A stretch of DNA of 64,000 nt, taken from contig OX597814.1 of assembly GCA_951406725.2 (NCBI GenBank), forward strand, positions 76,198,001 through 76,262,000, given 5' to 3'. A model generated the notes under the pieces. That model was given only the letters and a program-made list of their open reading frames with translations. It was not told the origin of the DNA and searched no databases. This stretch comes from Octopus vulgaris (lineage: Eukaryota). Each line of letters starts with the position of its first letter. Within the stretch, counting starts at the first letter, position 1. Position numbers and translations under genes: made by a program. Positions 328 through 48,180 of the stretch are shown here, piece by piece.

Positions 328-500
328 CAGTGGTTCCCAACCATTCTTTCCCTATGGACTCCTTTGATTCCTATTTAACTTGGGTGGACTCTTCATAACT
401 ATTTGACTTTTTTCAAATTAAATGTTATTAGGAATTGTACCAAAAAAAAAAAAAATTCTGTGTATTGTAGAAAGTTGAGAATCAATTCTAGACATTGTTG
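328..500 (+). mobile_element. hAT (Charlie-like) MITE 5' end
   Basis: tcctagac|CAGTGGTTCCCAACC start; similar to the element at 13453-13647; right end not found. Confidence 0.45.
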
Positions 501-1632
501 GGTCACTGAAGAGCAGACAGTTGCCTATGTGCTTGGAATACAAAGGTACATAAAATATTATCCTCAATCCAAAGCAAAAAGTATACATGCCTGTATTTTA
601 TACCTTTGATAAAATACCAAGACAGCCGGAGATGATCATCAAAAAGTTTTGAGTGTCCATGAGGCTTACCCCCAGTCTGGGTCTCACTAAAGAGAACCAT
701 CTTTGGGAGCCAGTTACCTGGCATCTGAATCACATGGCCAACCCAGCAGAGAAAGTAACAAAGGATGCAGGCCTCAAGAGATACTTCCAAAATAGCAGAA
801 CGAATACACCTATGGTAGTGGAGCATCATCATTAAGGATGGGCTGAGTACAGAAATTAAGTTTTTCACATGTTATGCACTGTCCCACTCAACTGGTTGTT
901 AATCAGAAGGCATGAAAGTCCATGTGTGATGCTGGAGTGGAGAGCACTTTGAAACTCAACACAGAAGACTACATAAGATGTTACCAATCCACTGTGGCTG
1001 TTACAGAATCTTGCCAGTCACATCCACTCCCATGAAAAAAGATGTACTGAAGGATGAATATCCTGGATCAATGCTGTCATAAATTTACACACCAGAACAC
1101 TTCAAAATGTTAAAACTATCTTATCTGTAGCAACAGATTTTCTCTGAGAAACAATGCTTATTAGAATTCTATTACACACAATTCATTTGTTTCCCTGGTT
1201 TTATTTCTGAACTTTCTCACCACTAGTTTTTAATGTAGAGAGAAGACTTTACGCAAGAATTCAGACATCAGCTAAGTAATCATGTTACATACATGGATGC
1301 AGGTCAGAGTAATTTGTTTACATATGTGGGTTTCCACATACTTGTACACCACAGGTATAAAATTCTGTATCGTTTTTCATATTACTTCCCTGGAACACTT
1401 GAGCTTCGTGAAACCCACTTTCTAAATATTCGTGCTGCCTCAACAATTAGTTATAAACTAGGCATATACATGTACACAAACACCAGTTGCTAAAGAAATG
1501 TAACCTTTGTGCATGTGCATCAAGGGTCATGAAAGTGTTTGGGCCAGTTTATAGCAAAAGAGGAATCTATGTATTTATGGAAACCTTCATATACATCTAA
1601 ACATTGCTGTTTTGCATTGATTACATAAGTAT

Positions 1633-3090
1633 CACTGTGCAGCACTCAAAAAAGTACGAGAGATCTGTGGCCATTTTTATATGCAAAATGACATGGGAAA
1701 TCAATTTCTGGCCTTCTTTTTGTTGAATTAGGCATGGTTTCTACAGAATTGTCACTGTATACCCTTTTTGTCATTATTATTAAATAAAATTCTCTATTAC
1801 ATTGTAAAATGGTTTTCAACCCAGGCCAATCTTAGTAACACCTACAATGTGATTCGAAGCTTGTGTTTAATGTTATTTTTTATCTTTCAGATCTTATTTG
1901 TTTTCAACAAGGAGTGCAAAAATGATCCAGATTCTATTATATCTGTGGGGAATTGACTTTTGCAAAAGAAAGTGTAGTGCTCAATGCCATATCAAGAAAA
2001 TATACAAGGCATACTTCGATTGTTACTTAGGAGACCAGATAAGTCATGGGCTCCTCATGTGTGAAAGCATTGAGTGCCTGGTATGCAGGAAAAATGTTCA
2101 CATTAAGTTTGGTGTGCCAATGATTTGGCATGAGCAGAAAGATCACTCTAACGATAGCTATTTCTGTTACCATGACTTGTGCAGGGATCTCTAATGAAAG
2201 AGAAAAGTGACTGGCATCAAGAACGTAATCTTGAGAAAGGAGTGAAAATAACACTGTACAGAAAATGTACAGAGGATCTGCTTGCATTATTCACCATGAA
2301 GGATTACTTAGGCTTTTGTAATGACATCGCTGAACTTTTTGAGCAACTGAAAATACCATATGATAAAACCAACTGACGACTTTTCATAAATGCATCCAAG
2401 CTGTTCTACTACACAATAGTAACACTCTGCCTTCTGTTCCCATAGCTTATAGAACAATTATGAAAGTATCATATGAAAATCTGAAAGCAATTCTATCATA
2501 CAGTATGATGACCATACCAGGCATATTTGTGCAGATTTTAAGGTTGTGGCCATGCTTACTGGCCTTCAGCTTAGCTATATATTTTGCTGCTTCCTTATGA
2601 AATTCCAGAGCAAGAGCTGAATATTATGTACGCAAGGATTGGCCGATCCAAGATGAAATTGAGCAAGGAAAACACATGAACAAACTACTTGTGAAAAGTG
2701 ATAGAATTTTTTTTTACTACCTTTGCATATTAAATTTGGTTTGTTTAAGGAATTTGTGAAAGCCTTCGACAAGGAATCCTCTGCATTTGCATATCTTGCA
2801 AAAAAGTTCCCTTCCCTGAGTCAAGCTAAAATTAAAGGTTTCTTCATAGGTCCCCAAATTCGAAAAATTGTACTTGATGAAACCTTCATCACACATCTCA
2901 AGAGAAAAGAGAAGCTTGCCTTTAAGTCATTCAAGAAAGTTTGTGATAACTTCCTGGGCAATCATCGTTCAGAAGACTATGTTGTGAATGATCTGCTGAG
3001 TCATTATTATACGGGATGTAATATGTCTCTAAAAGTTCATGTGGTTCACTACCATTTGGATTTTTAGCGAAAAATCTTTTTGTTGCAGTG
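1633..3090 (+). mobile_element. Decayed Chapaev3-like (CMC) DNA transposon with frameshifted transposase
   Basis: Termini CACTG...CAGTG with 3-bp TSD TAT; fragments FGVPMIWHEQKDHSNDSYFC and LHIKFGLFKEFVKA...KFPSLSQAKIK...GPQIRK...MSLKVHVVHYHLDF resemble Chapaev3 transposases. Confidence 0.75.
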
Positions 3091-6000
3091 TATTCTGCCT
3101 TTTTGTGTACACATCTAAACATTGCTGTTTTGCATTGATTACATGAGTATTCAGCCTTTTTTGTGTATCAAGGACTGCATTATTTAATGTAATACACTTT
3201 ATTGAAGACAGATGCTATTCTAGCAGATCAAACTTTATTTTTGTCCCTTCAGTATGAATGAGTGTATGTTTAATGTATGTAGTATATACACTTGTATGCA
3301 AGAAATAATTTTGAAAATATGGAAGAATTTAGTAAACTAATTTGTCTGATGTTTGGAATAAGTTAACATGAAATCCTGATTATAAAACAATTTGTTCCAC
3401 AAAACCAATGGTAGTTTGGTATCAAAAAAAGTTTAAAAAAAAAAAACTTTTTAATCTGGTCATCAAATACATAACTGAATTTAACAGCAGAGTCAACTAT
3501 TTGCTATTTTTATTCACAGAACACAGACATTACAAAGGTTAGGTAATATTTCAAATCTCCTAAACCACAACTTTCTGCCAACAACCATACCTTCAATTAA
3601 CTGATGTTTACAATGATAATAGACTCAGAGTTATACTCCAAGATCATTGTAGATTTACAATTTTTTGTGTTAGCCATAAACCCCAGTAGCCTGTTTTGTT
3701 ATAAAAGTGAAGGAAACTAAAACACACACAAGTGTCCCAATTGTCACTTCAAGGGGTAATGTTAAGTAGAGTTACATGGTTTCCCTTGTCGCATGTTGAA
3801 TGTAGACAACAGGCAAATGGATTGACCGAATGAAATTCTGTTATAATTTCAAACAATTTATGACCCTGTCCAACTTCAGCCATGCTTATCCTCTATTTAG
3901 ACATCACATACAATTATATCTTATTCATGAAAAAAGTCATCTAGAAATTTAACAGCTATTTCTAGCAGAGAAATTGCACAAGGTTCTTACAGAACAGGGT
4001 GGTTTCCATAAGAAACAGAACTCTACCATTGGATTTCATGAAGTCAAACTCTGGAAAAACTTTGGCATGATTTCACTGTCCCACTGACAGACTTGATTTT
4101 GCAGAACCATTAAAAAAAAAATTACTTTCACATAGTATCCTGATTGTACCAATGTATATGGTTAATCTAGGTTTCAAAGCAGCTGATCATATTTTGAGTG
4201 AACTTTCGTTTAATTACATAACATTTACATAAGTTCCTTAAGAGATCTTGGTACATAAAATACAATGTCTTCATAGCACCGTAAGCAGGACACCTGCAGA
4301 GAAAATTTCCAACAAGAGTCTCTGGAATCGTTCCCTGTTACCATATCACCAGTATATGCACAACTACAGGAGCAAAAGCACCTTCACTTCAAATCAAGAT
4401 CACCAGCCCCAACAATATCATTCACTCTGAAATGATTCTTGATGCATGTTAATGTTTAAGTTATCAGTATCAATGTTTGGAGACCTTCAAAGAAATGCAA
4501 CTTTTGTGCATGTGCATCAAGGGCCATGAAATGTTAGTAACCACCTTAATCCGTTTTCCACTATGCCTTGCTATAGCTCTGCTTTACTATAATTACCATG
4601 TTGTTGTTTGTACAAGTGAAAACAGTCTATTTTTCATTTTATTGGATGCTTCCCACCAGATTGCACAATGCACTGTTCCCAAGGATTAATACCCAGCTAC
4701 TGTATATGAACTGCTCACAATTATGAAACATATATTAATGCCTTAAGAACTCTTGCAATTTTTCCAAATAATGATCATTCTTATGTACATGATAACGCTA
4801 TTCCTAGCAAATATTATTCATATTTAGCTTAGACACATCAGGTCAACTCTGCACTGTTTCCATGGACAGTGACACTAAAAACATACCTTAATGTGATAGC
4901 ATTAAGTTCACAACCAGAAAATACATAGCCCTTGATTAGCTAAAGTAAAGATCAATGATGAAATACTTTTCACGTCAATGTGTGCATGACTGCTGCCACA
5001 TTTTATATCTTTGAGAGAATTAAGTATATCTCACCAGGAGAATTGGGAATGATCATGAACAATGCACCTTATTTGAGACTAATCTGCCTCATCAATGAGT
5101 ATTATATTGCTCACACAATACCTATACCTGATAAATGGTAATCAAATTGATTCATAATTGGTTGCTATCTTTCCGTATTTAGTTTCATGACCATGAGTGA
5201 ATGAAGGTTGCAGTAGAACAGGATTTCATATCTCCCATTCCCAAAAGACTCCTTTGATCAAAATTTTCATGGAAATTGAGTTTTAGGTGATATACTCAAA
5301 ACGAAGCTTTGTCACACACTTTGCTATTGCAAATATGTCAGAAGTACATAGAGTCAGTATATAACTAAGGAGACAACAAAAGATAATAATGGAAAATTCA
5401 TTGAGTGCTATAATATAAGGGCTGTGTAAACCAAGAAAACTGGTAGGTCTGACATTGGACCAGCACTTACTTTATCATTCACTTTTGTCACCACATACAA
5501 CCTAATCCTATTCACAAAGCAGTCAACCTGAATCCACAGTTAAGGCACTGCATAATGACAATGAGCTCAAAACCACTTAATAGAAGAAAGTTTAATTACC
5601 TGTAGTCACCTGCAGTACATCTAAAGAAACAAATATTTGCAGTTATCAGATGACAAAGAGAAAATAGAAAAAAATTAAACAGATCAATACTCTCGTAAAA
5701 ATCAACATCCTATAACTACTGAAAAGTTATCTCCCTTAAAACCATTATGCCATCCCAAATTACTGCCAGTAAAGTTTTTGTAATCTGACCTAAAAGCATT
5801 CAAATCAAAAACTAACCCCACTGCCAAATTGGTTATCAGGTTCAAGAAAATTATCCATTACTATCAACAAATTTTAACGTTTTCAAACACTTCAATACTA
5901 GGATTTCTTCTAAATCTTTTTACCAAATATTGCCAAGTCTTGTTTTTCTTAGCAGGTTACAACTTTTAATTTCAGTCACCTTTATCGAAGGTAATTGTCA

Positions 6001-6117
6001 CTAATTATAAACTACTACCAACCTCCCCTCCCCCCGTCCATTGGACGGTTTGTATAGGTGAAGAGGGTTAACCTGGACGTTGTTAAAGAAGTTTTAATCA
6101 TCTGATGGACAGGCTAT

Positions 6118-6965
6118 AAGGATTACAAAAACAGCCATTCTCACTTTGAAACTGTCAATTTTGAAAATATTTTAAGATTATAGAACATGCCCACTCTATC
6201 CATGTTTAAAATTTCAGCACCATCAGATGAACAATGCTCAAGTTATAAGCACACAAATGACAGACCGAACAGTATTTATATATTAGATGAGCCGATGAAC
6301 GAGACCTCTACATGATAGCAAGACCTGGTAGAAATAACAGCCAAATCTCCCTCAAATCACACCTTACTGTTTATGCATATTTATTTATGAGCCAATGAGG
6401 GAGACCTCTACATGGTAACTATACCTGGTAAAAATAGTAGCCAAACCTTCAAAACACCCTACTGTTATCAGTTCTTTTACATTTGACTTGCTTCAAGTTA
6501 GATAAGCGTATTGAGCCCTCTGCATATAGAGAAAGGAAAGAAGACAGATAGCATAGCTACGGTTTTGGCTGACTGTCATCTTGTACTCACCTTGTTGCAA
6601 GCAAAATGGTATGTACCAGCTGTCTGAGCAACTCCTTGCTTTTAATGAACAGCATGGAAAAAATAGGACAAAAAGATTACAGAAATAGCGATTCTCTCTT
6701 TGAAACTGACAATTTTGAAAATCTTTTTAGATTATGGAATGCCCCACTCTCTCGTGTATCCATGTTTAAAATTTCAGTGCAATTGGATGAACAATACTCG
6801 CTATGTTCTGAGTTCAAATTCCGCCGAGATTGACTTTGCCTTTCAGGGTTAATGTAATCGACTTAATCCCTTTGTCTGTCCTATGTTTAGCCCCTTGTGG
6901 GCAATAAAGAAATAAATACTCGAATTAAGCGCACAAACAGAGAGAACAGGATTTATATATCAGAT
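6118..6965 (-). repeat. Two diverged copies (6118-6288; 6672-6965) of a Helentron/DINE-like fragment, the second interrupted by a SINE
   Basis: Shared gattaca.aaa.agc.attctc.ctttgaaactg.caattttgaaaat...tatccatgtttaaaatttcag...tttatatat.agat. Confidence 0.55.
6801..6914 (+). mobile_element. Truncated SINE with 8-bp TSD (aatactcg)
   Basis: B-box-like gagttcaaattcc and tail gggcaataaagaaata; aatactcg at 6793-6800 and 6915-6922. Confidence 0.7.
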
Positions 6966-8659
6966 TTTAAATTTTAGAGTTATTTCCCTTACACTAATTT
7001 TCTCGCACAGCAGGAATAACTTTTAATCCATTACCAACTAGATTGTCAAATGTAACGCCTATTCATTACTAGTTTTGAATTAATCATGCATTACCGTTTT
7101 TGGTTTGAGATTCCGATAATGTACTTGTTTATGAGACTGAATATGGCAAGTCTGCACATAAAATAGGTATATTTGGACTGATATTGTCAGTTTAAATGCT
7201 AAAGGGTTAACCCCAAATTATCCATAGTTAATTTCCTTCAAGTCATATTTAAAAAATGACTTGATAAATCATGATGAAATTATTTTCAAATCCCATACTC
7301 TTGCACAATACAATCAGTGAGAACTGAGATACGACACAGTGGCATGCAAATTCATGAGCAAGAAAACTACTACGCCAAATGAAATGTATGGTAACCTCTA
7401 AGATATAAACTTACTACTGCAGTTATTACTTATAGCTAGATGCCCTCCTGACACCATGTATTACTTTTTTAAAAATTTAACCTCATTAGTCTTTTAACTA
7501 AAACTAGTTCTTTTTATCTATTTTATTCTGACTTGTCAGTTTCAACGGCAAATAGCAGAATACACTTTTTCAGGACATCAAACTGTATGTGTTTTTAAAA
7601 CAAATTAACGTTTATGTTGCCAGTAGCTCATTATCAAGCTACATACATGTTACTTTGTTGCAAACAATAAGAATATTATTGACCAAATTTAAGAACATGC
7701 TAGAACCAACCTAAGCAAAAATTTCCATTTTGGGATACCCTACCCCATTGATTACTGAAATTTTGCCATACTTTCCATGAAAGTGATATAGCAATTCCAT
7801 TATAAGTGTTGCATTAATTTTTTTTCCCAAATTTACATCTAGCTATATTTAACTTTATTTTAGTTACATGCTCTTGGTTCAATGTTCCTGAGCTGAAGTG
7901 AATTTAACTAACTAATGGCAGTACTTAACAGGTACTGGGACTTTTATCAGCCCAATGAAAAATAGATCCTGCCAGTGACAGCTGCTGTACAAAATCACAA
8001 CTCCAAAAGACAAGTGAAACATATCGATGAAATGGTTAACTCCGTTGCCCCCCCCCCTATTTTAATTTGGTACATCACTTTTCCCATTTGATAACAAACC
8101 ACCCCAACACTAATCTAAATGAACGCTCTTAGACTGTTCCAAAGACTCATACTTTCATCAATTATATATTCCTTTTATCAAATAGAATTAAAATATTCAA
8201 CAATATATAACTCAATATTTTTGTCTAACTCCAAATATTTGAGGGTTCAACTCACTTAAAAATACCAAAATTATTTTCAAGGTTAATTTACTTTTACCTT
8301 CCAAATATCAAACTTTTATTCAAGCTACCTTGTAAATACCATAAGAGTTAAACAGTGAAGTGTTTGTATCAAAAATTCAAGCTGAATACTTTAGATGGAG
8401 ACACAGCAAAGCATCTAGCCAATTAGTTACCTATCATTCAGGCCAAAAAGATAAAAACCTGCAGTGCAAAAAGCAAAAAATTCTCAACTACACTAAATTG
8501 CACATGATAACCAACCAGTTAAATGAGAAACAAGATACCAGGCTAATTAAGCATATATCTATCTGCAGTATAAGGAAGATAAATTGTTTTAAACTAAAGA
8601 CTAGTACTTCTAAATGGCTAAATGCGTTATTCATATAAATTATAAAATAGTACTTTTAA

Positions 8660-9156
8660 CCCTTTAGCATTTAGATTACTGCCAAATGTATTTTTGTTCA
8701 CAAATGTCAACAATTTTTATAAGTAACTTTTAACATGAGGATTTATATACATATGTATTGGTTTTATTGTTTGGCTGTGATATTGTGAATAGTACTCTGA
8801 AGTTCATCCATTTCACTATAAAAATACCCTGTCATTAGTTGAAAATTCAAAAACATCTATATCCGATTCAGCCCAAGTCATTTTACATTTCTTTCTACCA
8901 AAATTTTTCAAATCTTCAGTTATTACAAAAATACCAAGCTCATCAAATCTTGTGCTGCTTAAAATAAAGCATTATTTACAATCATATTTAGGTAGAAATG
9001 GTTTGATCCCTACAATCATATTTAAGTAGAAATGGTTTGATATATTTTTTTTTAGAGATTGCAGGTTAGGTGCACGAGGTCAAGCCTGGCCAGTTTGAAC
9101 ACACAAACAGAGTATTTGAAGCAGGTACAAGTATAGCTTATTTAAATGCTAAAGGG
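8660..9156. mobile_element. piggyBac-type MITE (related degenerate copies at ~7020-7210 and ~14067-14285)
   Basis: TTAA|CCCTTTAGCATTTA ... TAAATGCTAAAGGG|TTAA: TIR plus TTAA TSD. Confidence 0.8.
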
Positions 9157-12100
9157 TTAAAATGAAACGTACACTCACCACGTTACACAAGCTGCTAAGT
9201 ATAACAATATACCAAAAGCAAATTTATGCTACTCTTAGTCTATCAATTTACCAGAGTGAACAGAAAATCATTAACTTTCAATTGCTTAAACCCCACTATC
9301 AATTTACAAAAAAAAAAAAAAAAAAAAAAGGCACTGTAGAAGAGTATCATGCTAAAATGTAAAGCAGAGACTTTGCAGCCAAGAACAGGATCCTACCTTT
9401 ACAGACAAATAAGCCTGGCAGTTGTAGAAGGAAACAGCTAAGCACATATTGAAAAAGCAGTTAACATGAAAAAATCTGCAGAGCAGTGGTCACACTGGGA
9501 TATAACGAGTGGATACCTACTAAGCAAAAACTGCCTGAAGTTTTTTTTTTTTATAAAATAAAAATGTGATTGTAAGATCATATCTAAAAGCAGAGAGCTT
9601 CAAATGTAATGCAAACACGAAACAGTAATGCCAAAATTATGTAGAAAATATCAAAAACCAGTCAACTGGTTTCAATACGAGGCCAGAATATCTAAGTAAA
9701 GCCTGTAGGAAAAAGAAAAACCTAGATATGCTTTTAGAATCCCCAAACCTTAAGTGAGTTTCAATAATTCCCATAATTTCACATTGACTGTATGGACACA
9801 AATGTTGATTACACTTACTTTTACACAACTAAGACTGAAAACTAACAAAACATTTAAAAAAAAGAAGAACCTTTTTATTTCTGCCATAATACAGCAATTA
9901 GCTGAAACGAAGAAACACTAAAAGACCATTACCTTTATTACCTCCAGTGCTTCAAGTGTTCATCAAGCCTGAACAGCAAGGGAATAAATCAGTGTCAACA
10001 TCCCCAAGATTTGCTAGTGCTTAACAAGTAGCAACATTGCTTAAAATATTACTATTAAGTTGACAAATAGTGGCTTACTTTCATATGAAAATGTGTGTAA
10101 AGAAAGTATAACTGTTCTTTAAAACATTAAGCAATCAATGGAAATAAATTCTATTTGCACATACAATTGAAAGATTTGACAACAAATCACCTTAGGCCAT
10201 TTGAAACTTCACACACAATACAGAACATTTCAATTTATAATAAAGCTTACAAAGCTGTGTCTAATATATGGTTACTGAATACTTGAGCTTACAACATTAA
10301 TTTGTAAATAACTGTTGTAACTTAGAATCCAAAATGACCGCTATAGTATACACTGCATGATGCAGAGAAACACCACTACTTACCTTCTTTCTTAAATTTG
10401 ATTGTTAATTTTCAAACAGATTTTCCTATCAAAGCCAAATCTTCTTCAATGACATTGTACATTTTCCATACGAGAAATATTCAGCAGGACAGTAATTTCA
10501 ATTTAAACTTTTCAGCCAACTTCAGTATTTTATGGTAAGCTTTCTAGCGGAGGTGTTTGAAGTATGAACCTCCAAGTTAAAAGACATTGCTTCTAACAAA
10601 TCCAATTCAAAGCAAGTTTCCAGCAGATTAGTGTAACTCAAGATTATAAATATCAACTATCAATCTCAAATTTAGTTGAGTCAAGTCAACATTCAGCAAA
10701 CAACCTATTTTATGTCTAGATTGCCAAGATTTAGAGTTAATCAAAGAACTGGGTATATATATATGTCTATGTATATATATATACACACACTAAACAGAAA
10801 TTTCATATTTATACTGACCAATTTTCACTTCTATGTAGAATTTGCCCCATTCAAAAATTTATGTACTTCTTTGATAAGCTTCATTAGAGTATGTAAATTA
10901 AGTACTGCCATCTCCTTCATTCTTAACATAACAGTCAGCTTTGTATCCAAAGTGTCGTGATATGTAATGTAATGAGGTGATGTTCTGTTCACAAGGAGAA
11001 AGACAGCTCTAAGGAGTGGTAACAATAGTGATGGGTCTTCGTTAACAAATAGTTCTTCATCATTAAGTTTCATACTTGCTGCTGCAAAAAGATCACAGGC
11101 AATATAATTCGAATGTGATAAAAAAAAATTGTCTTGGCTCTTACTGAGTTAAATTTTGAGCTGAAGTTATTGTGGGAGTAAAATTTTAGATTGAAATAGA
11201 AAATGTAATGTGCTCAAATCTAAAGTTAGATCTTGTCTTTTGTAATGAAGAAATGACTAAATATAAGGCAACAAATTACCTTAATTTTAGATGGTTATTA
11301 TCTTTATCTTTAACGTATAATGTTTGACAAATTATGAAAAGAAAACAAGTCTTGCCCTAAACAAGCAAACAAGTAACCATATAAAAGCAGAAATTAAAAA
11401 AAAAAAAAATTGAAGTTTCAGTGCTATTATAGTAAGAAAGTTTTCACCTTAAGATGCATCACTTTCATTTCAAGCAATATTGCCAAGTTCACTCATCTAT
11501 TATATTCCATTTCATGTAAGGCACACACCCATTTCCACTATAATTCTCTGTAATGGGAGGTAAATCCATACGCAAAGAACAAAACCTACAGAACCTAACA
11601 TTTTCTCTTCTCAACTAAGGATCCAGTCGAAATTTTACTAGAGCAGGGAATACTAATAGATCAATCTAATTTTGCAAGTGTCAATGTCAAATTGGTGTGA
11701 ATAATAACCACCAGATCCTTTTAATAAGTTTATTAAAACCAGAAAGTATTACACAGTCTTGCTAAACAGCAAAACCACAGGTTTTCTCAGCTTAAAAGAA
11801 CTATGAAGTTAAGAAAAAAGACAAAATTTCAGTGAACTTGAAAAGATTAAAAAAAAAATAAGAAAAAGTGCCCATATCTATAATATTTGAATTAAGAACT
11901 GATAAGTTAAAAGAATGGGAATGTTTTTAAATTTACAGAAATGGTACCACCACACCTCAATGTAACTTACATCTGATAAAGACCCCAGAAACTTTTTTTA
12001 TAAAATGAAGGTGATATAACATTATAAAGTTTAAAAGCCTAAATTTAGAAATTAGCAACTTGTGTTTTAACAAAACAAGACAAGCAAGAATATCCTATGT

Positions 12101-12158
12101 CAGTTCAGTCTAAAATAGTCAGCAGTCAGCTAAATCAAAATTGGAATAAAAATGTTAC

Positions 12159-12442
12159 CCATCTGCTCGATTCCAAGCGATCTTCTGGCTTCTTTACACA
12201 GCTAAAGACTTCTATCTTGGCATATCAAACCCATTTTCTCATTCCCACTTCTTAATTCACCAACTCATTATCTTCATATTTTTTTTATTATTTTATAAAT
12301 TATTTTTCTCATTTTTCTTAGCTTCCATGATTTTCATTCAGCCTATTCAGATTTTTCTTCTCAGTTCATTCTTTCTTCACGTTCAATCCCCTGATTTCAG
12401 AGTTCTTTCTTCACCAGCCCATTTCATTTCTTTCTTCATAAC
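12159..12442 (-). other. Candidate AGAA-rich alternative (poison-type) exon of tra2, 3' of the terminal exon
   Basis: tataaag|GTTATGAAGAAAGAA ... GATGG|gtaaca; 284 nt; three TGAAGAAAGAA copies; about 15 AGAA by hand count; in-frame stop at 12411-12413 when joined to exon 9. Confidence 0.65.
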
Positions 12443-12539
12443 CTTTATACAATACAAGAATAAGTAACATTAATTTTTGGGGACAAAAAGTCTGCAGTCT
12501 ACTTTTTTTTTTTTAACTCTTCATTTGATCCTGGCTTCA

Positions 12540-12589
12540 TAAAACAACAAAAAATGCTATAGATTAAGACACTCCCATTGATCTTTATT
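12540..12589 (-). terminator. Putative tra2 poly(A) signal AATAAA (12584-12589) with downstream U/GU-rich element; second AATAAA at 12767-12772
   Basis: Minus strand reads AATAAA followed about 30 nt later by ttttttgttgtttt, downstream of the exon 10 stop. Confidence 0.5.
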
Positions 12590-12818
12590 GAAAGTTGTTA
12601 ACAGTATAGCAGGGAAATAGACAGCACAAAAAAGAACTACAGCTACATATTTGGTTCTGGCTATAGAGGGAAAGATATGATAAATTGTGGAAGATGCATT
12701 TCTGCCTTAGAATTGCTCGGAATTTCCTCACAGGCACAAATATTGACTACACCATAATTATGTACATTTATTGAAGAGCTGCTTTTTACTGTAGGCTCAT
12801 CGCATAGGACAAAACATC

Positions 12819-12829
12819 TCAATAGTGAC
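12819..12829 (-). CDS. tra2: tra2 terminal coding exon 10 (R-H-Y-stop)
   Basis: tttgtttccctttttcctcag|GT CAC TAT TGA; strong acceptor; mirrors the vertebrate ...SPRRY* ending. Confidence 0.85.
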
Positions 12830-13052
12830 CTGAGGAAAAAGGGAAACAAAGAGAATCATGTAATAACACTGAAGCAACATAAAAGAAGGAGATGGACAGG
12901 CTGGGTTAAAATTTTTACATAAGGGAATTAAAGCCAATTACATATTTAGTAAAATGTACTGAATTTCTAAAATAACATTAGAAAAGAATTTTATAAAGTG
13001 CTTTAGTTTGGAACTTCAGTAAATCACAATGGATTTCTGAAACCAGTTACTC

Positions 13053-13091
<39 letters not shown>

Positions 13092-16000
13092 TACTGAAGG
13101 AAGCTTTTTCTTTACATTTAGAAAAAAAATAACCAAACTGATTTTTAAAAAAAACATGCAATTCCTTAAACTAGAGAGGGAATGCCTGTTTTTAATGGAT
13201 AGTTAATTGCACATTTTTGAAAACTCAGAAGATATCAAAATCCTAGACCTCTTTAGCAGAATATATAATTTAATGCAAATTATTTACACAATAAGGACAA
13301 AGAAAAGCAAGGCACTATTTACATGCAGATTAAAACAAATATTTTAGATCTAAATCAGTAAGATAGACCTGCAAGAAATATTTAGATAACATTCAATTGT
13401 GTGTAACAATTACACTTAGGTGCTTTTTAAGTAAAATGTTGACCACTTAAATCAGTGTTTCTCAACCAGTCTCTGGACGCCATAGTGATTCAATGCTTAA
13501 ATAAAATCCTGTATTTTCATAATTGAATATATTACAAATTGTATTTAAAAAATAGTTTTAATGTTTTGTGTATTGTAGAAGTTATAACCAATTTTATTGC
13601 ACATAAATTTAAGCAAAATCTTATATGGAGTCCAGTTGAGAACCACGAATTTAAATAGATAAGCTGAAAATGAAGATCCAACAAAATTGTTAGTAAGCAG
13701 AGTATAAGAAAATTTTTCACTTTGTAACTGCAGATATATACAATTACAATCATTTTACCTTCATGAATACTTTTAATACTGATATTTCTAATGAGTGAAG
13801 AAACTGAATTCATCTAAATATTAAAAATTAGTTTTAAATCATGACAAATTTGAATACATGGTCTAAATGTTGGGGTGAAGAAAAATTATCCTACAGTTAA
13901 TAAGTGCTTTTAATTGGGATTTACTGTTTATTCATACATTAGCAAAACCCAGAAAGATAGAGGGGGAAAAAAAAAAAAGAAAGAAAACTAGGACCATTCT
14001 CAGCAGTTGCACATTTGCAAATTTTAGATTTTAAGAAACCAAAATTCAGCCTTTGCACAAGGTTAATTAGCCTTTAGCATTCAGATTACTTTGTCAAATG
14101 CAATGCTTGTTTATTCACATTGTTTTGAATTGATAATGCACTACCTCATAGCTTTGCAATTTTGATGTGATTATTTTTAAAATGAAGTTGTAAAGTATGT
14201 GTGAAAGGCCAGATCTAGCTGGTTTGAAGATAAAAGAGGTAGAATATTTTGGCTAGATACAACTGGTTTAAATGCTAATGGGTTAGTACAAAAAACAAAG
14301 CTGAGCAGCAGAATAAAAGAAAATTAAGAGCACAGGTAAATCATAAATTACACAAAAAAATGTATCTTGATTAGAAAGGCAAAGAATATTGGTTTTGACA
14401 CTGCACAAGAAAATGCATGTGATAATATGAAAGCTGTTGACAAGTACTTTTGATTACTCCTTTCATCACTAATTTGCTATATAACATAATTACCTACATA
14501 TATTTAAATTTTGTTAGTGGAAGTGACTTTATACAACATTTCCATGACAAATTTATGGTCTCTAAATTTCAAGGGATATTTTCCCATATTTTAGTCTTTT
14601 TAGAAATGAAGCAAAAGATCCCAGCAATTACAAATCAGAAGAATAACAATGAAAAATTTTAACAAGCATAAATGCTTCATTTCATTTTCCAATTATCTTT
14701 TTCTGAATTTTTCAGTAGAAACCAAGCCCAGACTTTCTGATGCTTTTGAAGTATATGCAGCCTAAGACAGACTTCTTATTAGGAGATTATGTCCTATAAC
14801 ACACCTTGATGAGATTCAAGTATTTGTTTTTTAATATACATAATAGACATTTGGAAGGTGCTCAGGAGAACAAACTTATTGGAGCACAGATGACTCGTAC
14901 AACAAATCCTCATATTTTCAGTATTATGGATTAGACCATGGATTTTAAATTATTGGCATGAACACCAGCAGTACATCTTGACCTCTCTTAGATGCTCTAT
15001 CACTAACCAAGAAAAAACTGTCCATTTATGAAAGGACAGTGGGATAGAAAAATTAGGTATACTTCCAGCCACACACACTAAGAGCAAACTTACAATATGG
15101 GGTATCAAAGAATGAAAGATTTAGTTCAACTTGTCCTAATCTAAATTTTTAAAAATCTGTTTTAGTTAGAAACCTGTCAAATTTTTCAAACTAAAACAGC
15201 CTATAGAAGATTTTAAAATCTACTTGCATAGAAACCAAAACCTCCACTCTTTGCAAAACTTTGTACATTGATAAATATACACATAACACTGAATCTTTCA
15301 GGTTGTCTACACAGCATTTATTTCGTGATCTTGACATCTAAAATATAAGCTTTAATCATTAGAAACCCAAACAGAAATTATTAAAAACCCTTTTGTTACC
15401 AAAATGCAGGTGCCAAGTTTAATATTAATGCATTAAAAATAAATGGAGCATTACCAAGCTTAGAAAGCAAAAAACTATGTTAAAACTGCTAACATAATGG
15501 TTACTGACTATGATGTGCAGGAACTGAACTTATTTCAATAAAACTTTTGTTTTTAATATACAATTGAAATATTAAGCCAGAGAGCTCATATACTTCAATT
15601 TGGCAAGTTCTAAATGTTCAGATGTCACTTTTACTAACAGCATATATTTTAAAATTTGGCAAAATTTTACTCATCCAAACATTTAGCTTTTACTTTGGTT
15701 TAACTATACAGAGCAGCATGTCATTTCATATACCAAATTATTGGACTGAACAATTACACTGGATAAAAATTCTAAATTGTGAAATGACTTTTGCAGTTTT
15801 AATCCAAAAAACTAAATAAGGGTTAGTAATAGTAAAATCAAGACTATACAAGAATACCGTAGCACATCAAGTTAAAGCTTATATGGTAACAATAGAGTTT
15901 AAAATAATGGGTCTATTGTACTTCACATTGATAAGCAATTCCAAAAGTATTTCCATATGGAACATTCAAGTGGAGTTGTCATGCGAATTTAAGGAAAACA

Positions 16001-19000
16001 AAACTTACGGGGAGAAAATGATCTGGAACGGGACCTAGAGTAACGACTTCCACTGCGTCGATAGTAAGGAGATGGAGAACGTTTACCTCTGCCTTCTCTG
16101 AAACATTAAATTGGAACCAAGTGAAGCAACATAAAAACAAACTTGTAAAACTAATGCTGAAAAATCAAGCAAAACAATGTATTAAAGGTTTAGGTGTAAG
16201 AAGATACTTACGAAGTTGGTTTCCCTAAGTAAATACCAGGTGTTGGAGTATGAGCTCTTTCTGTAATGGAATAGTCAACTCTAATTCTTCGACCATCAAC
16301 TTCTATTCCGTTGCACCTATCTTTCGCCTGAAATAAAATACAAAAAAAAACCTAAGTATGAGCCTATATACATGTATAGGAGCTTTTAACAATTAACATA
16401 GATACACCTAAAGTATAAACAGAAACTAAATGCATTTAAACATGCTAGAAGTAAACAGTCTCCATAACCATCCTCAACTGAAAAATTCATTGTAGATATG
16501 AGAATCATCACATGATCAGGTCGCATATCAGTCAAAAATGTATAAATGAAGGTTGTCATATGAAAGTTATATAAAATTACAGCAATATAGACAATACCAA
16601 ATGAAATTTTTAGAATAAACTGCTAACTGGTTTTGATTATAGAGTTCATGAATTATGACTTACCTCCATGGCATTGTGTGTGGCTCTAAAATACACAAAG
16701 GCAAAGCCTCGTGATCTGCCAGACTACAAAAAAAATGAATACATAATATTCTTAAAATTATTTCAGACATCATTCATTGCGCACACAAAATTTCTAGCTT
16801 AAAGGTTTCGTTTTAAAAATTTGAATTTAAGCATGATAGTGAACACTATAATGCCAAGTCCTACTACCAACTAAAAATATTTTCTATTGATAAAGGTTTG
16901 ACATGCCTTTATCCACATCAGGTAAGCCCACAAGGGTGGTAAGATATTGCTGGGGTTTTAATGTTTATCTAGTGCAAGTAAGTTCAATGAAAGTTACACC
17001 AGATATAGCAGGCCAGACATTAACCCTTTCGTTACTATATTTCTGACCAAAATATACTCCTCATGAGTTTCAATTAAATTCTAAAATAATCATGAATTTA
17101 GGCTTGTTTCATTAAATAACTGTAACTTTTTTACTTAACATTTTGATAAAGCAGAATTGTGCACATCACTAGATCATCAGTTGAATTTAATGCACAACAG
17201 AACAGGTGTACCATAAAGGTGGAATGAACTGAAATATTGGAATCCACCTAAATCCACAGCAAGTTTGACCGAACTAAAGAAATCGGTCAAAAAATAATAT
17301 ACGGCCCTGGTTATGGTAGTGATAAATTCCAGACCACATCGTTCCCTAGGTCATTATTTTCCCTGTATAAAAACTAGATCCACAGCAGTACCCAGTATTT
17401 TGCTTCACAAATTTTCCAAACTTTGATTCCCCATTTCGTGTTTTTTTACATTCTGCGAAATAGTTTGTTTCCGAAGTGATCGCTTCAAACAAGCATACTG
17501 AAAGAAAAGTCTAATGGTTTCGCTTCCTAAGAAAGACTATAGATAAACTATCCATCTTCTCAGAAAAATTGCTAATAAAAATATTTTTTTAATTTTTATT
17601 TCATTCCGATGTAAAATCGTCTTTGCTGTCGCTATCACCGCTTTGTTTCTTTGGAATCGCTGCTTTTAGAAAAAGAAATATCCTATTCATTATTGTACAC
17701 CACGTACTTTTGTACCTCATTCATTCTTTTTCTCGATATCTCCCTATTTTCCATTGAAAAAGCTTTAAATTTGGAATCAATGCTTGATGACATGAAACTC
17801 CTATCTATTTTCAAAGTTGAAGAAAAATCGATGCCGAAAAAAATCTCCCAAAATTCACTGAGTTGAGATATCACGTCAAGCAATGTCGGATACTATAACC
17901 CAACTATTTACAAAGTGAAATCACGTGTTTTAATGAATGTACCAACGAGATCTGAGTTCAAATTTACATTTAAATAACAATAGGTTCTCTCAGCCAGCTT
18001 GGTATTATGAACCAAAAATTTTTTCGGCCGGGTTAGTAACGAAAGGGTTAAGGGGCACTATAATACAAATTTTTTTTTCTAACAATATACCAAATTGTGA
18101 AGGGCTAAAAATCAATGTGACCATCTAGTCCCAAGCAGATACAATACAGTTGAGAGCAAGGATACCCATCTCATTTTAGCAGTTATAACAACAACAATAC
18201 TCAAAAGCCACCAATTTTAAGTAGAAGGGCTTGTACTGACCACAGTACCTGACTGGCACTTTATTTTATCAACACCAAAGGATTGAAAGGCCAAGTGTCA
18301 GAGAAAATACTGTTAGGGATATTTTCCAACACTAATGATTTTACTAAGTCACTTGTATAATAGTTTCTAATTCAGGCACAAGGTCTGCAATTTTCGAGTG
18401 GAAGGTGTTAATTACAAATAGTCACAAATGATCCCCAAGAGATTTGAACTGAGAATGTAAAAGAACAAATTAAAGCATTTCCCCAATAATACTAACAATT
18501 CTGTTAAATAATAATAATCAAAAAGTGTCAAGAATTTTGTATATCAGTGAATTGAAACAACAATCTAACATGTTTAGCAAGATTACATAATGTAGAGGGG
18601 AAAGCTTTACAAAATTCTTTTTTAAATTCCTTCTGAAATGAATTATTTTCATCTACCGATACATCTGAACTAGTGTCTTCACCTAAATTGTTAGTGTTTC
18701 AGCTACGTATGCAGTCATATTTGCACCTTCAAGCTTTCTAGTACCTTTTATATTCAACATTGTTCTCAGAATTTTAAGCTGAAACTTTCATCATTTTAGA
18801 ATTTACTTTATACAAACTGGAAATGTATTTTAAGCTAGAAATATACAAACAAAAAACTTAAATATGAACCCAATTGCAAAGAACTATTGTTTTTTACAAT
18901 TTACAATAAAAAACATACTAGGGAAGGTAAAAAATTATCTGCACTTTTGCCAAAACTCTTAGGTCAGCCACAATACCTTCCGTACCTACAAAATAAAAAG

Positions 19001-21993
19001 GTGGTTATCTAACCAAGATTTGACTGCAATTGCTTTGTTTTCTTACTTGTATTGCAGAGTGGACAATCTGCTGAGAGTGTGCACCAAGGAAGAACAGAGA
19101 TCAGTGATCCGATTTCCTCTAGTCTGAAGATGTTTACATATGCTGAAATTCATCACAGGCTTTCAATACAATATGAGAACAGAGCTCTAATATGCAGAAG
19201 TGTGTAAGAGTGAATTAGGAAATTTTGAAATGACTGGACAAGTGGTGCAACCAGCTGAAAAACTTTTCCAGTGGAATAAACAAGCATCAAAAAGCAAGGA
19301 GCCTATGTAGAAAAATTATGTAACTGTTTAACCCGTTTTTGTTCAAATTAATTACAGAAACAAGAGTGTGTATAATTTTTGATTTAACCACATTTTCCTA
19401 TCATAAACTGGAGAAGAGAAAAATATAAAATATTACCTGTCTGTCATAGACAACCTGAACATCTTCGACTGGACCATATCGAGTAAAAACCTCTCTGAGA
19501 TCTCTTTCTTGTGTATACAAACTGAGACCAAAAACACCGAGACACCGTGAAGGCTCAGGGTTGTCCTGAAAGGAAAAATAGTGAAGAAACTAAACTGCCC
19601 ATGAAAATATTTGAGGTATGTTCTCAACTATGAAAAACATTGTAAACCACTTGTTAAAATGGAAATATCATCCAATGAGCCATACTGCATGAAGATGTAT
19701 AAAATGGTGTAAGTATACAATAAAGATTACTTACATAATATGGCTTTACACTTGAGTAGAACAACAATTGTGGTTATATTAATTAGTTGTAGTTCTTGAT
19801 ACAAATTTTGTTAACTACCAAACCAAATTTTTTTTTATATAAAAAAGACTTTTTTCCAATAGCCAAATCATGAATGAATTTATCATTCAAATATCCTAAT
19901 GCTGAAGAGACTAAGCCCTTTTTAAAATATTCCGTAAAAATTCTTACGACTGAAATCAACCATAAGTGTACCAGTCACACACACAAACACACAATTAAAA
20001 AAAAAAAGTTGCTAATGCCATAAGATGTAGTTAGTGTAACAGTTTACCTCAATGCATTACTACTTAAAACATTAAGAGCACATCAGTGGATTGCACTTGA
20101 TGCATACTCACGAATCAGGATCAATGCTTCAAAGAGCATAGGCCCTATAATTCTTTGAAATTCTAAAGCCATGGATATTTGTAAGTGTTCCAAGAAGGAT
20201 CCCCCATAACCTTGTTTTCTTCAATTTCACTTCCATACTCTGAAGTATGTTGACACCATTTTTCATTATTCACAAGTTGTTTTGAAAATATTGTTCCAAT
20301 AAACTGGAAGTGAAACCAATCATATTCTTCTAAAATCTTCACTATATTCTCAGTTCCAATTATTTTCGCTAATCATGTCCGCTTCAGCCATATTTGATGC
20401 ACACATGAAAAAAAACGGTCATATTTATTAAAATTTGTGTTGTGACAAAATTTTATGGGTACTAAGTTAGGGTTTACTCTTTTAGCATACTTAACTGAGT
20501 AGTTAAGATAGCTAATGGTGAGTCACTAATTATCATTTAAAAGCCAAACAACATAAATAACAAAGAAATAAGAATTTTCCTAAAATCCAGTATCATTGAT
20601 GTTAAGACAAAGTAAACAAATACACCTAATCATAGTTTTTTTTTTGTTTTCTTTTTTTTACATAATCCAGAATATTTAGTGCTGTGTACATATTCAACAA
20701 TCAAAGCCAAATACATTGAAACTGAATTCAAAAGTATGATTGCAGCATTGTTTGCACTAATATACATGAGGATCTTATATTTAAGATGTGTGGCATCTTA
20801 AAACTAAGATGACATAAAAGGTAAGTTCACATATCTCTAAGGAAGTAAACTTAGATTTTTTTTTTTTTAATTCTACACAGGTTAAAATGAAAACCAACAG
20901 CTCACAGCAGCTGCTAAACTGAAAATAAGATTAGTCCTGCTGGAATATCCTACCAAGGATATCTTGTTAGGTTTTTTTTTTTTTTTTTTTTTTTTAAAGG
21001 AATGGGAGAAAAGGAAAAGTAAAAATAAAAAAATCATGTACCTCACTTACTCGGCTCCCACCAAGCCTGCGACGACTAGACATTGGAGATCTGCAATGGG
21101 TGCGATAATAACCACGTCTTCTGTCATTGTATCCATCTCTGTAATAGTAGGGGGAGTAGCGTCCACGACTGTAAGAACGACTGCAAGGAGCAAGGAGCAA
21201 AAGGTACATACATATCGAGATCTACTTAAAGACACAAATCAATTGAATCTATCTAACATGTTTGATTTGTGTTTAATTAAAACAATAACAATATATCTTT
21301 AAAAATTACACAAAATTAAAACTAGCTTTGCCTACTCTGGGGTGGGTGGGAGGGTTAAAACAAAGTAGCTTACCTCCTGCTTCTTGAGCTGTAAGAAATA
21401 AAGTATTCAGGTCATTATTATTAAGTAAAAACCAAATTTCTTTTAAATATAAATTATCAACTGACAACAAAATAAGATTAATTAAAATACTTACTATCTA
21501 CGTCTCTGTGAGTAAGGAGTTCGTGACCGAGAACGAGAACAGTACCGTCTGCTTCGACTTCTTGATCTATTACAAAAAGTTGATAATTGTAAATTTCAAC
21601 TTTATTACCAACCTATCTGACATAAACTACTCATATTTAAATGAAAATATCAACAGATTTCATTACTGCATTAGTGATAACAATTTCACAAGATTAACAT
21701 ACAAGTAAAAATGCTGTCATCCATAAATACAGGCTTGTCCTTTACAGGTGCTGGCGCCACGTAAAATGCACTCATGCTGGTGCCATGTAATAAGCACCCT
21801 GCACACTGTAAAGTGATAGGCATCAGGAAAAGCATCCAGCCATAGAAACCATGCCACAACAGACAATTGGAGTCTAGACAGCTCCCTGACGGGCAGCCCC
21901 AGTCAAACCATCCAACCCATGCCAGCAAGGAAAACAGACAATCCATTTTTATCTAACCAAATTATACGTTTTGTCATGTTCAAAAGCTAGTTT

Positions 21994-22030
<37 letters not shown>

Positions 22031-25000
22031 ATATAGATAGATAGATAGGTTAATAAATAACTGATTCATGGAAACCATAAGTTTTTGATTCAGAATGCAA
22101 TTGAAACAGGTGGGGAAGGAGCATATGACAATCTATTTTTAGTGCAACAGTTCAAAAAGTAAAATTTGCCAAAAATTTAAGAGAAAATTTATTTGTTGAA
22201 TGTGATGATGCCATTTTACATATTACAGTAGAGAGTGAATGCTTTGGCCCAGTACTGGGAGTGGTCAATGAGTTATGTTAATTTGGAGACCTTTGGAAAT
22301 TGGATTGCACATGAAATTGAGAACAATTTACCAACTTGTGTTCAGAATTCCATTGTTATATTTATTCTTTATTGAAGTACAATTTTCAAGAATAACATAT
22401 GTTCTTTGATAATCATATAATTATACATAAACTTGGTTTAAGTATTTTTCAACCACCAGTATGTTTTTTGAATTTTCTACATTGATGCTGATGAAAACCA
22501 TTTTCAAGAAAATGTCAGCAATGGAGGCTCCGGATTGGCTAAAATCACACAACTTTATTAACTTCTAGAGAAAAAGTCCATTTTTGTCATCAGCGGTGTA
22601 GAAAAGTCTTCAAATTTTACTTTCAATTGGATTCCATTTTAAACTGGATCACTATATTTTAGAAATATAAAAAAATGCTAAATCATAGAACTAAGCAAGC
22701 ATTATTTGAAAAAACTAGCATATGGTAAGATTTACCTTGATCTGCTGTATGATCTCCTATGTCTATGCTTTGATCGAGATCTTGATCTAGATCTGGAACG
22801 AGATGGTGAACGTGACTGGGATCTTGATCGAGAACGAGATCGGGAGGCAGATCTCTGAGAACGAGCAGATTTTGGAGTTGGAGACCTTGAATAGGAGCGA
22901 GAGGCTTCCGACTTATGAGAACCAGATTGGTGAGATTTTTCAGATATTTTTGATTCTCTGGAGGCTGAACGGCTCCTCTGTAACAAAATAAGACAATAAA
23001 AAAAAGTGAGACAAGCAACAACATAAAACAGTGGCAAGAACCTCTCAGGAGAGCTGAACAGCAGGTCTTAGAGAAGAAACCCAACTAAGGTAAGTGTTTC
23101 GGCCCTTAACTTCTTATGTGCTAATACAACTACAAAAGGAAATCGAGACTCATTCTAACTTTAAACAGTTTCGATATTAAGTTTTGTTGACGCCAGAACT
23201 TAAAAACTTCCAAGACAATTTTATTGAAACAATGGATCTCGAAGTACATGAAGCTATGAATAATAGCATGTAAAGCTGAAAAACTAGGATTTTAAAAAAG
23301 AAATTGAAAAGTGCCCATGGGACTGACAGCCTTCTGCATTTTCCCGTCCAAAAGGGTTTTTGAACCAAATATCTGTTTACATTTTACTATTCATAGCTTA
23401 ATGTTTACAAGTACACCTTAATTTTTTCAGTGGATCCTTGTTTTCAATGACAGAGACCCTAAGTATGCCAAAATCCATGTTTTCAAAATTTTCAGTTCCT
23501 CCCTCTCCACCCAAAATTCTAAAATTTTAACTTTTTCCGAATATTTTTTTTTCAATCTACATGGAAAAGCATGGAGATTAGGAATATGGAAAAAAAGAAA
23601 ATTAATCTCAATGAGGAAACTCCAAAACTGATTCATACACCCCTTGTCACTCCATCCCGCTAACTAAAATTGAAAATGAACAGCTTGCAAATATGAAAGG
23701 CTACTAAATGTGAGAGAGCTGCCCTAATGTGAACGTGAGGGTCCAACCATTCTTCTGGGAAGCTGTTAAGAATATGAAGACTGAAAGTCCCTTGTCCATC
23801 AGGAATTATTTATAAGTGCATAAATATGTGGCGGGGGGGAATTTCGGAAAATTCACCGGAGTCCACTTCAATTCGTCTTAACTTTCAAGAAAATGGATGT
23901 TATTAATGAAATTCTATACAAATATGGACTTGTTCGGAAACACCCGCAAGTGGGGAACGGTTCTCAAAAATAACCCCCAAAATTCCAGTCCTCGGAATCT
24001 ACATAGTCCGAAGTATATTTGTAGATAATTTCATTAAAAAATATTCATTTTCTTGAAAGTTAAGACGAACTGAAGTGGACTACGATGAATTTTCTGAAAT
24101 TCGCAACCCTAAAACATTTTCCCCCAAAATTTTGTATATTTGGGAATCTACATGATATAAAACATATTCGTAGAAAATTCCATAAAGAAATATCCTTTTT
24201 TCTGAAAGTATGATCATCCAAAATCCGGGGGGGGGGCAGAAACCTGTTATGCCCAAGTAATATATCAAAATTTCATAAAACACGTTTGATATTTCATGGG
24301 GATCTTTGTATGTGGGTCAACGATTCACTCAATTTTTTTTTTTTATCCAAACATTCATACTCAGACAATAGAAGGGCGATGGATGTTCAAGAAGGTGATA
24401 TTGTGGAGTTACTCCTTTACTTGCTTCAGTCACTTAACTGCGGCTATGCTAAAGCACCGCCTTGAAGGACTTTAATCAAACGAAACGACCCCTTATTTTT
24501 GAAGCCTAGTACTTATTCTACTATTGCCTTTTTTTCCGAACTACTAGATTATGGGGATGTATACACCGGAACATTAGCCACTCCTTCGATATAACTCGAT
24601 AAAATCAGAACATTTCACTTCGGGTATTTCCGTGGTTTGTGGAGTATAGATATAACGAAATTATGCCAACAATGTCTCATTTAAAAAAAAAAAAGCCTTG
24701 AATATTTGTTCTTACCTGTTTCATTTGGTTATGTAAAATCTGAAAATTTCCAAGCAGAAAACAGAATCGAACTGTCATTTGCTTCCACGGAAATACTCGA
24801 AGTGAAATGTTTTGATTTTGTCGAGTTATATCGAAAGAATGCCCAACATTAGTCCAAGGGTTGGGTTCAAAATTCCACCAGAACACATGAAGGCTGGAGA
24901 GTACATCAGCCGAAACTTTGTGATAACAACAAACACGATGAGCATACTTATCTCTCCATTGCAAATAATGTACAGCAACAGCAGTTATAAGCAGTGACGA

Positions 25001-46405: not shown

Positions 46406-46410
46406 GGTTG

Positions 46411-48180
<1,770 letters not shown>

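Follow-up and report, generated by a model that had tools for sequence, protein, structure and literature searches.

The window analysed is a stretch of 64,000 nt of Octopus vulgaris DNA. Its minus strand carries the octopus tra2 gene, with exon 1 at 29706 and exon 9 at 16097–16009, followed by exons 10 and 11 (Table 1). The encoded protein has the RS1–RRM–linker–RS2 organization of the Tra2 family and is orthologous to TRA2A/B, and its RRM matches the structure of human TRA2B (PDB 2rra, E = 4e-40). Translation of exons 1–9 followed by exon 10 is identical, letter for letter, to O. sinensis isoform X2 (P0122), and that of exons 1–9 followed by exon 11 is identical in the same way to RefSeq O. 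sinensis isoform X1 (P0124). A search of the octopus genome with P0002 gives 16 matches, comprising four exons of the tra2 locus and 12 RRMs at 22–43% identity. A retrocopy containing spliced tra2 forms was sought in the same genome, and a second tra2-like locus is absent. The identity with the O. sinensis proteins, the match to the TRA2B RRM and the one locus in the genome together uphold the assignment of the gene as tra2 in the original prediction and indicate that it is single copy.

Table 1. Coordinates of tra2 exons and associated features in the window, with the basis of each assignment.
Feature	Position	Strand	Basis
tra2 exon 1, coding part (MSDKENE)	29686–29706	-	gene model
tra2 exon 2 (RS1)	22736–22977	-	matches O. 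sinensis proteins
tra2 exon 3 (RS1)	21495–21566	-	matches O. sinensis proteins
tra2 exon 4, 15-nt microexon in RS1	21374–21388	-	matches O. sinensis proteins
tra2 exon 5, two donors, 21051 and 21042 (21042 adds V-S-E)	21042–21180	-	21042 form an exact match to P0122/P0124
tra2 exon 6 (RRM)	19437–19565	-	gene model, protein match
tra2 exon 7 (RRM, RNP1)	16664–16723	-	contig joint
tra2 exon 8 (RRM end and Tra2 linker)	16212–16327	-	contig joints in 3/4 runs
tra2 exon 9 (RS2), phase-1 donor common to exons 10 and 11	16009–16097	-	sequence and contig joints
tra2 exon 10, productive terminal exon, RHY-stop 12821–12819, AATAAA 12772 and 12589; 3′ end approximate	12560–12829	-	exon 9–10 joint in 3/4 runs; X20 mRNA contig ends 12574
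exon 11, AGAA-rich alternative exon: acceptor 12442, stop 12413–12411, candidate donor 12159 and AATAAA 12289 within the exon; also transcribed as part of a long 3′ UTR	12159–12442	-	sequence, annotated octopod proteins, blind acceptor scan
long 3′ UTR contig, read through from exon 10 over the spacer and exon 11 to past the donor; next AATAAA 11734	11868–12829	-	X11 contig; X20 contig covers 12099–12575
possible distal terminal exon, acceptor-like 6893 inside repeat, AATAAA 3514; strand and tra2 link unproven	3500–6893	-	weak: contig extents and depths

Several further features of the locus may be noted. The donors of exon 5 are 9 nt apart, and use of the distal one adds V-S-E immediately ahead of the RRM. 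This insertion displaces an arginine that is aligned with the arginine preceding the human TRA2B RRM, which we take to be an RNA contact. Insertions at the exon 5/RRM junction are also present in the tra2 relatives L014, L017, L004 and L072. The length of RS1, in which the microexon is located, differs among the annotated octopus isoforms. A third acceptor-like site lies in intron 9 at 13368 on the minus strand (a tract followed by CAG), and would give R-L-S-Y-stop in phase with exon 9; its use was sought in the annotations and in the examined contigs, and is absent from both. Intron 1 contains an inverted duplication of ∼190 nt flanking a compound TG/TATG satellite (26640–27560). Broken reading frames occur at 1600–3200, 43900–47300 and 61100–61600, and by impression these are presumably DNA-transposon-like and LINE-like.

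Exon 11 measures 284 nt; its acceptor is AAG and its donor GG|gtaaca. It begins 376 nt downstream of the normal stop codon, and both of the AATAAA hexamers of exon 10 lie between that stop and the acceptor. It holds 15 AGAA and 30 GAA, with copies of TGAAGAAAGAA at 12428–12438, 12403–12413 and 12369–12379. When joined to exon 9 it reads RYEERNEMGW-stop, with the stop codon 252 nt before the donor. Recounting and translation reproduce what the original prediction had reported of the length, splice sites, three repeated motifs and reading frame, as well as its placement of the segment some 400 nt past the normal stop and beyond an AATAAA. Two further AATAAA were absent from that prediction, one inside exon 11 and the other at 11734.

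The enrichment of AGAA depends upon the baseline. The local composition predicts 1.5 copies in the segment, while fairer baselines give 6.8 (the composition of the segment itself, p = 0.001) and 8.1 (3000 dinucleotide shuffles, p = 0.002), these p values taking the segment as given, without correction for its selection. The 15 copies originally counted are correct and their excess is still significant, but the enrichment is smaller than the 15 versus ∼2 that had been claimed. On both strands of the 64 kb exon 11 is the top 284-nt window for AGAA (15 copies; the next has 9 and the mean is 1.8), and a scan of the tra2 introns found none above 6. A blind scan for a pyrimidine tract, an AG and a jump in GAA density selects exactly 12442, and among the 895 AGs within 16 kb downstream of exon 9 it alone gives an EER/KKE-type tail. 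Exon 11 shares one feature with the Tra2 autoregulatory poison exons, namely clustered AGAA sites in a long exon of tra2 itself.

Exon 11 is single copy. It has one match in the 2.8-Gb octopus genome, which is itself, in a search that skips very common words. No tandem repeat was found within it, and Rfam gave no matches in window positions 3000–30000. An origin as a transposon, which the original prediction had named as a finding that would overturn it, or as a known RNA family is rejected on these results.

RNA from octopus was studied in four of 20 listed runs over window positions 1–17000 (X4, X11, X18 and X20, from four studies, as assembled contigs). The RNA nature of the runs is presumed (14 of the 20 are guessed to be RNA and six are unknown), yet the contigs show exon–exon joints. 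Such contigs reveal spliced joints but carry no strand, ends or levels, and they drop rare forms. The exon 9–10 joint is present in three of the four runs. In X11 a single unbroken contig extends from 11868 to 12829 with a depth of 38, to be compared with 44 for the exon 9–10 joint and 9–17 for intron contigs. In X20, where just 6 of 30 bins are covered, an mRNA contig ends at 12574 and a second contig spans 12099–12575. The contigs of these two studies read straight across 12442 and 12159 as a long 3′ UTR. Over exon 11, X4 and X18 are barely covered or not at all, and such gaps prove nothing. Exon 11 is thus transcribed in continuity with exon 10, across both proposed splice sites, and this read-through is the only direct RNA result in octopus. 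No joint at 12442 or 12159 is found among the best 14 of 30 joints of the four runs. This does not exclude splicing at these sites, because the contigs drop rare forms and NMD targets are rare. All 20 listed runs contain at least 84% of the words of 12100–12900, spacer included, the runs having been chosen by that share. The 962-nt contig of X11 has no differences from the window, compared with ∼3/kb in the other listed contigs of that run (∼3 expected); this was considered too weak to count.

Transcription is also seen further downstream. A weak candidate for an exon to which exon 11 might be spliced would extend from 6893 to ∼3500. Contig ends lie at 3502 in X4, 3445 in X11 and 3624 in X18, close to the AATAAA at 3514. 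X4 is deeper over 3500–6893 (55 versus 14–18), but contig depth cannot rank the parts of a gene. Against this being a tra2 exon, the site lies within a repeat, and X11 lacks a depth step and continues further. The region is, in its own right, a transcribed block of 3.3 kb bounded by a high-copy repeat (6805–6915) and the AATAAA at 3514, and in X4 its depth exceeds that of the flanks. The repeat also carries an AATAAA on the plus strand, so antisense RNA is possible. A neighbouring gene that might own the downstream transcription was sought in the 10 kb before the window start, and just repeat-like ORFs were found (29 ORFs of at least 70 aa).

The tail encoded by exon 11 is present in annotated proteins. 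RYEERNEMGW ends the Tra2 of O. bimaculoides (XP_014774693.1), four of five O. sinensis isoforms and that of Argonauta hians, and O. sinensis X2, like the O. vulgaris entry, ends in RHY. Five of the six RefSeq proteins examined from O. sinensis and O. bimaculoides therefore end in the exon 11 tail. The 16009-to-12442 splice, for which the original prediction had asked that RNA be searched, is annotated in three octopods, the Argonauta model possibly being projected from Octopus; in the RNA contigs themselves the search gave the negative result described above.

Related tails occur widely in invertebrates. Tails were classed from the residues after the last RS2 'SP' in named proteins, by a pattern written after the tails had been seen; ten taxa in which the RS2 end could not be recognised were excluded, and in three of these such tails are visible by eye. 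Of 81 named invertebrate taxa (mostly genera), 38 have EER/KKE-type tails after the last RS exon. In molluscs they are found in cephalopods (3/4), bivalves (5/11), gastropods (2/6) and the chiton (1/1), and elsewhere in Lingula (1/1), chelicerates (7/17), hexapods (18/30) and Trichinella (1/1). The pattern found none in crustaceans (0/5), nemerteans (0/2), annelids (0/2) or Priapulus (0/1); it misses the RLKNG tails of decapods, which may fit a GAAGAA start. Counted by protein, the tails are present in 67 of 204 invertebrate and none of 54 vertebrate entries (five vertebrate rows having been dropped), with a Fisher p of 1e-8 that is overstated, the isoforms and related species being non-independent and the pattern post hoc. 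Insect tails are conserved from damselflies to bees, with a fixed stop, the Hymenoptera representative usually being RFESRGIG; their homology with the mollusc exon rests on 3–4 residues. Cloned shrimp transformer-2c has an equivalent tail (P0327). Two frames are used within bivalves (Sinohyriopsis RFEERN versus Ruditapes RLKKEN) and within chelicerates (spider RHMERR versus tick RAWKKE), and the positions of the stop codons vary. Because the tails fall in two frames within one class, it appears to be the RNA motif (GAAGAAAGAA-like, GAAGAA) and not the peptide that is conserved.

A different kind of tail, ending in RK directly after RS2, recurs across phyla (P0224, P0226, P0242, P0271, P0329; L065, L017). 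In L065 and L017 it arises where the intron preceding the stop exon is retained, which suggests that this intron is removed slowly or under regulation.

Relatives in metagenome contigs were compared at the DNA level, using the best 80 of 281; several of these duplicate one organism and many end soon after the stop codon. Among the 38 of them with at least 400 nt after the stop, eight have significant AGAA clustering, and sense AGAA exceed antisense in 23, with the reverse in 12. An acceptor-plus-GAA score of at least 10 is reached by 5 of 49 on the sense and 0 of 47 on the antisense strand (same best 80). In L053, L007, L066, L074 and L017 a pyrimidine tract and AAG|G are located 290–350 nt after the stop and lead into an AGAA block, with 6–9 AGAA in 200 nt or less after the AAG|G versus 0–2 before it, and the acceptor context of L053 is nearly that of the octopus window. 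In L007, L023, L015 and L074 the blocks end at donor-like sites and are 175, 242, 287 and 321 nt long, respectively, near in size to the 306-nt Tra2a poison exon. The last of these, a genomic contig, carries an RS2 exon, an RRY-stop exon and the 321-nt block, whose donor is GTAAGT, as well as another acceptor-like site (2308). L047 and L079, in which a GAA block comes ∼1 kb past the stop codon, fit less well, and L068, L069 (both genomic) and L029 end too early to judge.

One pair of these contigs is particularly close. L015 and L011 are identical at 848 of 872 aligned bases (97%) as far as a G|GTATGT site that lies 166 nt past the stop codon; beyond this point L011 runs on into the GT, and L015 jumps to a 287-nt block with 13 AGAA. 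This is apparently a spliced 3′ UTR junction of NMD geometry, though the two contigs are perhaps from different alleles or species. The sites homologous to 12442 and 12159 are read through in L007, L023, L053, L066 and L017.

The relatives were placed in a tree of the RRM region with 57 rows, from which Branchiostoma and L074 were left out and in which no named cnidarian or sponge was included. L007 and L015 fall among lophotrochozoans (96/96), L017 and L079 group with Folsomia (98/98), and L066 lies weakly among crustacean-like rows. L053 is on a long branch with nematode rows, and because it could not be placed the claim of conservation is limited to protostomes. As judged from these comparisons, the layout and motif of exon 11 are conserved far beyond cephalopods, across protostome phyla, and the cross-species conservation upon which the original prediction had staked itself is seen both in the related tails and in the similar acceptor and AGAA layout. 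The same tree contains a distinct Tra2 lineage (L054/L055 and L070; 100/97), with AGAA/GAA-rich blocks past the stop that occur twice in L054.

Exon 11 is almost certainly a real, conserved exon, and it is probably controlled by Tra2. It is most simply seen as a Tra2 sensor, because a weak acceptor and ∼15 Tra2-type sites occur together in tra2 itself, and it is likely a negative-feedback element that limits Tra2's own production. At low Tra2, exon 9 would join the strong acceptor of exon 10, a joint that is observed, and the RNA would likely be cut after the AATAAA at 12772 or 12589. At high Tra2, the protein would bind cooperatively to the ∼15 AGAA and so bring into use the weak AAG acceptor (leading to RYEERNEMGW-stop), the 12159 donor, or both. 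Exon 11 would thereby divert transcripts from the productive route of exon 10 and poly(A) into forms predicted to be degraded. The candidate donor is 252 nt after the new stop, and so more than 50 nt; onward splicing from it would leave a junction at that distance, or 660 nt past the normal stop, and NMD is therefore predicted if 12159 is used. Because exon 11 lies beyond the exon 10 poly(A) signals it can act solely on uncleaved RNA, so that cleavage and Tra2-driven splicing would compete. For the complete negative-feedback model with decay, in which we infer Tra2 binding, donor use, NMD and the negative sign, our preference is a modest one. The continuous contigs from exon 10 across both splice sites count against a simple cassette poison exon, and tail-bearing proteins are common in RefSeq and Hymenoptera, which is odd for a rare degraded RNA.

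This abundance of tail-bearing proteins leads to the main alternative, that exon 11 is a regulated alternative last exon. The change from RHY to RYEERNEMGW and the different 3′ UTR would then belong to a stable, translated mRNA, with or without control by Tra2, and 12159 would be little used. The RefSeq octopus proteins fit such an exon as well as they do a rare NMD target, as do the fixed stop of the insect tails and the cloned shrimp isoform. The AATAAA at 12289 and 11734 could terminate exon 11, and the joints seen in the runs include none from the donor. We nevertheless consider this unlikely: tail frame and length vary within bivalves and chelicerates, the AGAA block extends ∼225 nt past the stop and in four other animals ends at a donor-like site, and in L015 the junction attaches the block beyond the normal stop, where the protein cannot change. 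The AGAA block might instead be mainly a platform for Tra2 in a long 3′ UTR, shifting the choice of poly(A) site or causing nuclear retention or decay in the manner of TDP-43 or HuR autoregulation, with the splices being minor. The read-through seen directly in two octopus studies and five metagenome-contig mRNAs, the share of words from 12100–12900 (spacer included) in the runs selected for it, and the break of the X20 contig just past the AATAAA at 12589 are all in keeping with this. The most conserved feature, however, is the acceptor itself, a tract with AAG|G before the block, which is needless for a pure UTR element and is used in frame in annotations across phyla, and the read-through contigs may be incompletely processed RNA. 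This explanation is correspondingly improbable.

Least credible is a chance purine-rich patch or repeat remnant, in which the annotated splice would be noise or an artefact of gene prediction. A-rich, AT-rich DNA is also AGAA-rich, and the splice is known from annotation while the best 14 of 30 joints in the four runs lack it. Yet the segment is single copy (as far as a search skipping very common words can tell), the tail is identical in Octopus and Argonauta, related tails are present in six invertebrate groups and in no vertebrates, and the acceptor context is nearly identical in mRNAs of unrelated animals. This possibility is largely refuted and has very little probability.

If exon 11 is a feedback element, its distribution bears upon the evolution of the gene. 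Tra2 dose governs splicing networks, fertility and insect sex determination, and to our knowledge Tra2 feedback has been worked out solely for the vertebrate 5′ poison exons and a fly germline intron. We raise, tentatively and as somewhat less probable than its negation, the idea that the 3′ AGAA exon is an ancestral protostome (perhaps bilaterian) Tra2 feedback switch that octopus, spiders and bees have kept for >500 million years and whose place in vertebrates has been taken by 5′ poison exons. If this were so, Tra2 dose would be set by poly(A) cleavage versus Tra2-activated splicing, and the alternative-tail tra2 isoforms of shrimp and insects in sex-determination studies would be by-products of the loop. 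A conserved 3′ element would offer a testable autoregulatory mechanism for most invertebrates and would clearly exemplify how a single feedback logic can change its place in a gene during evolution. The tra2 isoforms cloned from aquaculture and pest species would then be seen in a new light, and of the Tra2 proteins entered in databases as 'isoform X1' many may be products of regulation and not the main protein.

The original prediction had also held the arrangement to be undescribed, and this agrees with searches of full-text literature, largely outside subscription journals and supplements, in which neither an AGAA-rich 3′ exon nor 3′ autoregulation of invertebrate tra2 was found; the peptide FESRGIG gave no matches. 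In the accessible text there is no occurrence of 'autoregul' in PMC7363937, of TRA2 in the main text of PMC4379411, or of invertebrate or Drosophila in PMC12632421, and nothing pertinent in the available parts of PMC5560861, PMC13247117, PMC8195531, PMC8298206, PMC8858584 and bioRxiv 10.1101/2022.10.27.514028. The isoforms are already in databases, and the autoregulatory interpretation is the new part.

The closest known system is that of the vertebrate TRA2 genes. From the portions available, Tra2 binds AGAAGA-like sites (the TRA2B CLIP consensus is AGAAGA) and, where many of these sites act cooperatively, switches on long exons, the 306-nt Tra2a poison exon among them (PMC3240583). The TRA2B (Sfrs10) exon 2 and TRA2A poison exons occur in the same gene family as exon 11, and are similarly long (284 versus 306 nt), with many AGAA, an added stop and nucleotide-level conservation (PMC3240583). 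As described there, they lie near the 5′ end, truncate the protein before the RRM and have been shown to be activated by Tra2 (PMC3240583). The octopus exon, unlike these, lies past the last RS exon and the exon 10 poly(A) signals, leaves RRM and RS2 intact and would compete with the terminal exon. A 5′ poison exon was sought at the vertebrate position, in tra2 introns 1–2, and no AGAA block was found (maximum 5 AGAA/284 nt). Exon 11 was rejected as a positional orthologue of the vertebrate exons, as it comes after exon 10 and not upstream of the RRM exons.

Arthropod tra2 genes also have alternatively spliced last exons. By the available text, Cherax CqTra-2A/B/C are three isoforms differing in the last three exons (PMC7363937), and Riptortus Rptra-2-299 has a 1515-bp skip in the last exon (PMC10672195). 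The tails of Penaeus chinensis transformer-2a/b/c, taken from database entries, are of canonical, short RK and AGAA-exon types. The accessible accounts of Cherax and Riptortus treat the isoforms as sex-determination proteins, with no mention there of autoregulation, AGAA sites or NMD. Great age has a parallel in SRSF5, where an unproductive exon is conserved from anemone to human (PMC4379411, in part); this too is an old unproductive event in an SR gene, with a position that is replaceable in evolution, but unlike octopus exon 11 the SRSF5 exon is internal (PMC4379411).

In its position the octopus element is closer to SRSF2/SC35, which autoregulates by unproductive splicing in its 3′ UTR, according to the part of the source available (PMC2831310). 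There, enhancers near the 3′ end of the gene are bound by its own SR protein, and a weak acceptor past the stop is activated, as predicted for octopus Tra2 (PMC2831310). The protein and motif are different, and octopus exon 11, unlike the SRSF2 element as far as it is described there, can also replace the stop-codon exon. TDP-43 reportedly has its own binding region in the 3′ UTR, where splicing and the choice of poly(A) site compete. It differs in being an hnRNP-type protein with a cryptic intron, lacking an alternative C-terminal exon like octopus exon 11. By analogy, exon 11 resembles the vertebrate TRA2 poison exons and the SRSF2 3′ UTR loop in its logic, and is likely autoregulatory.
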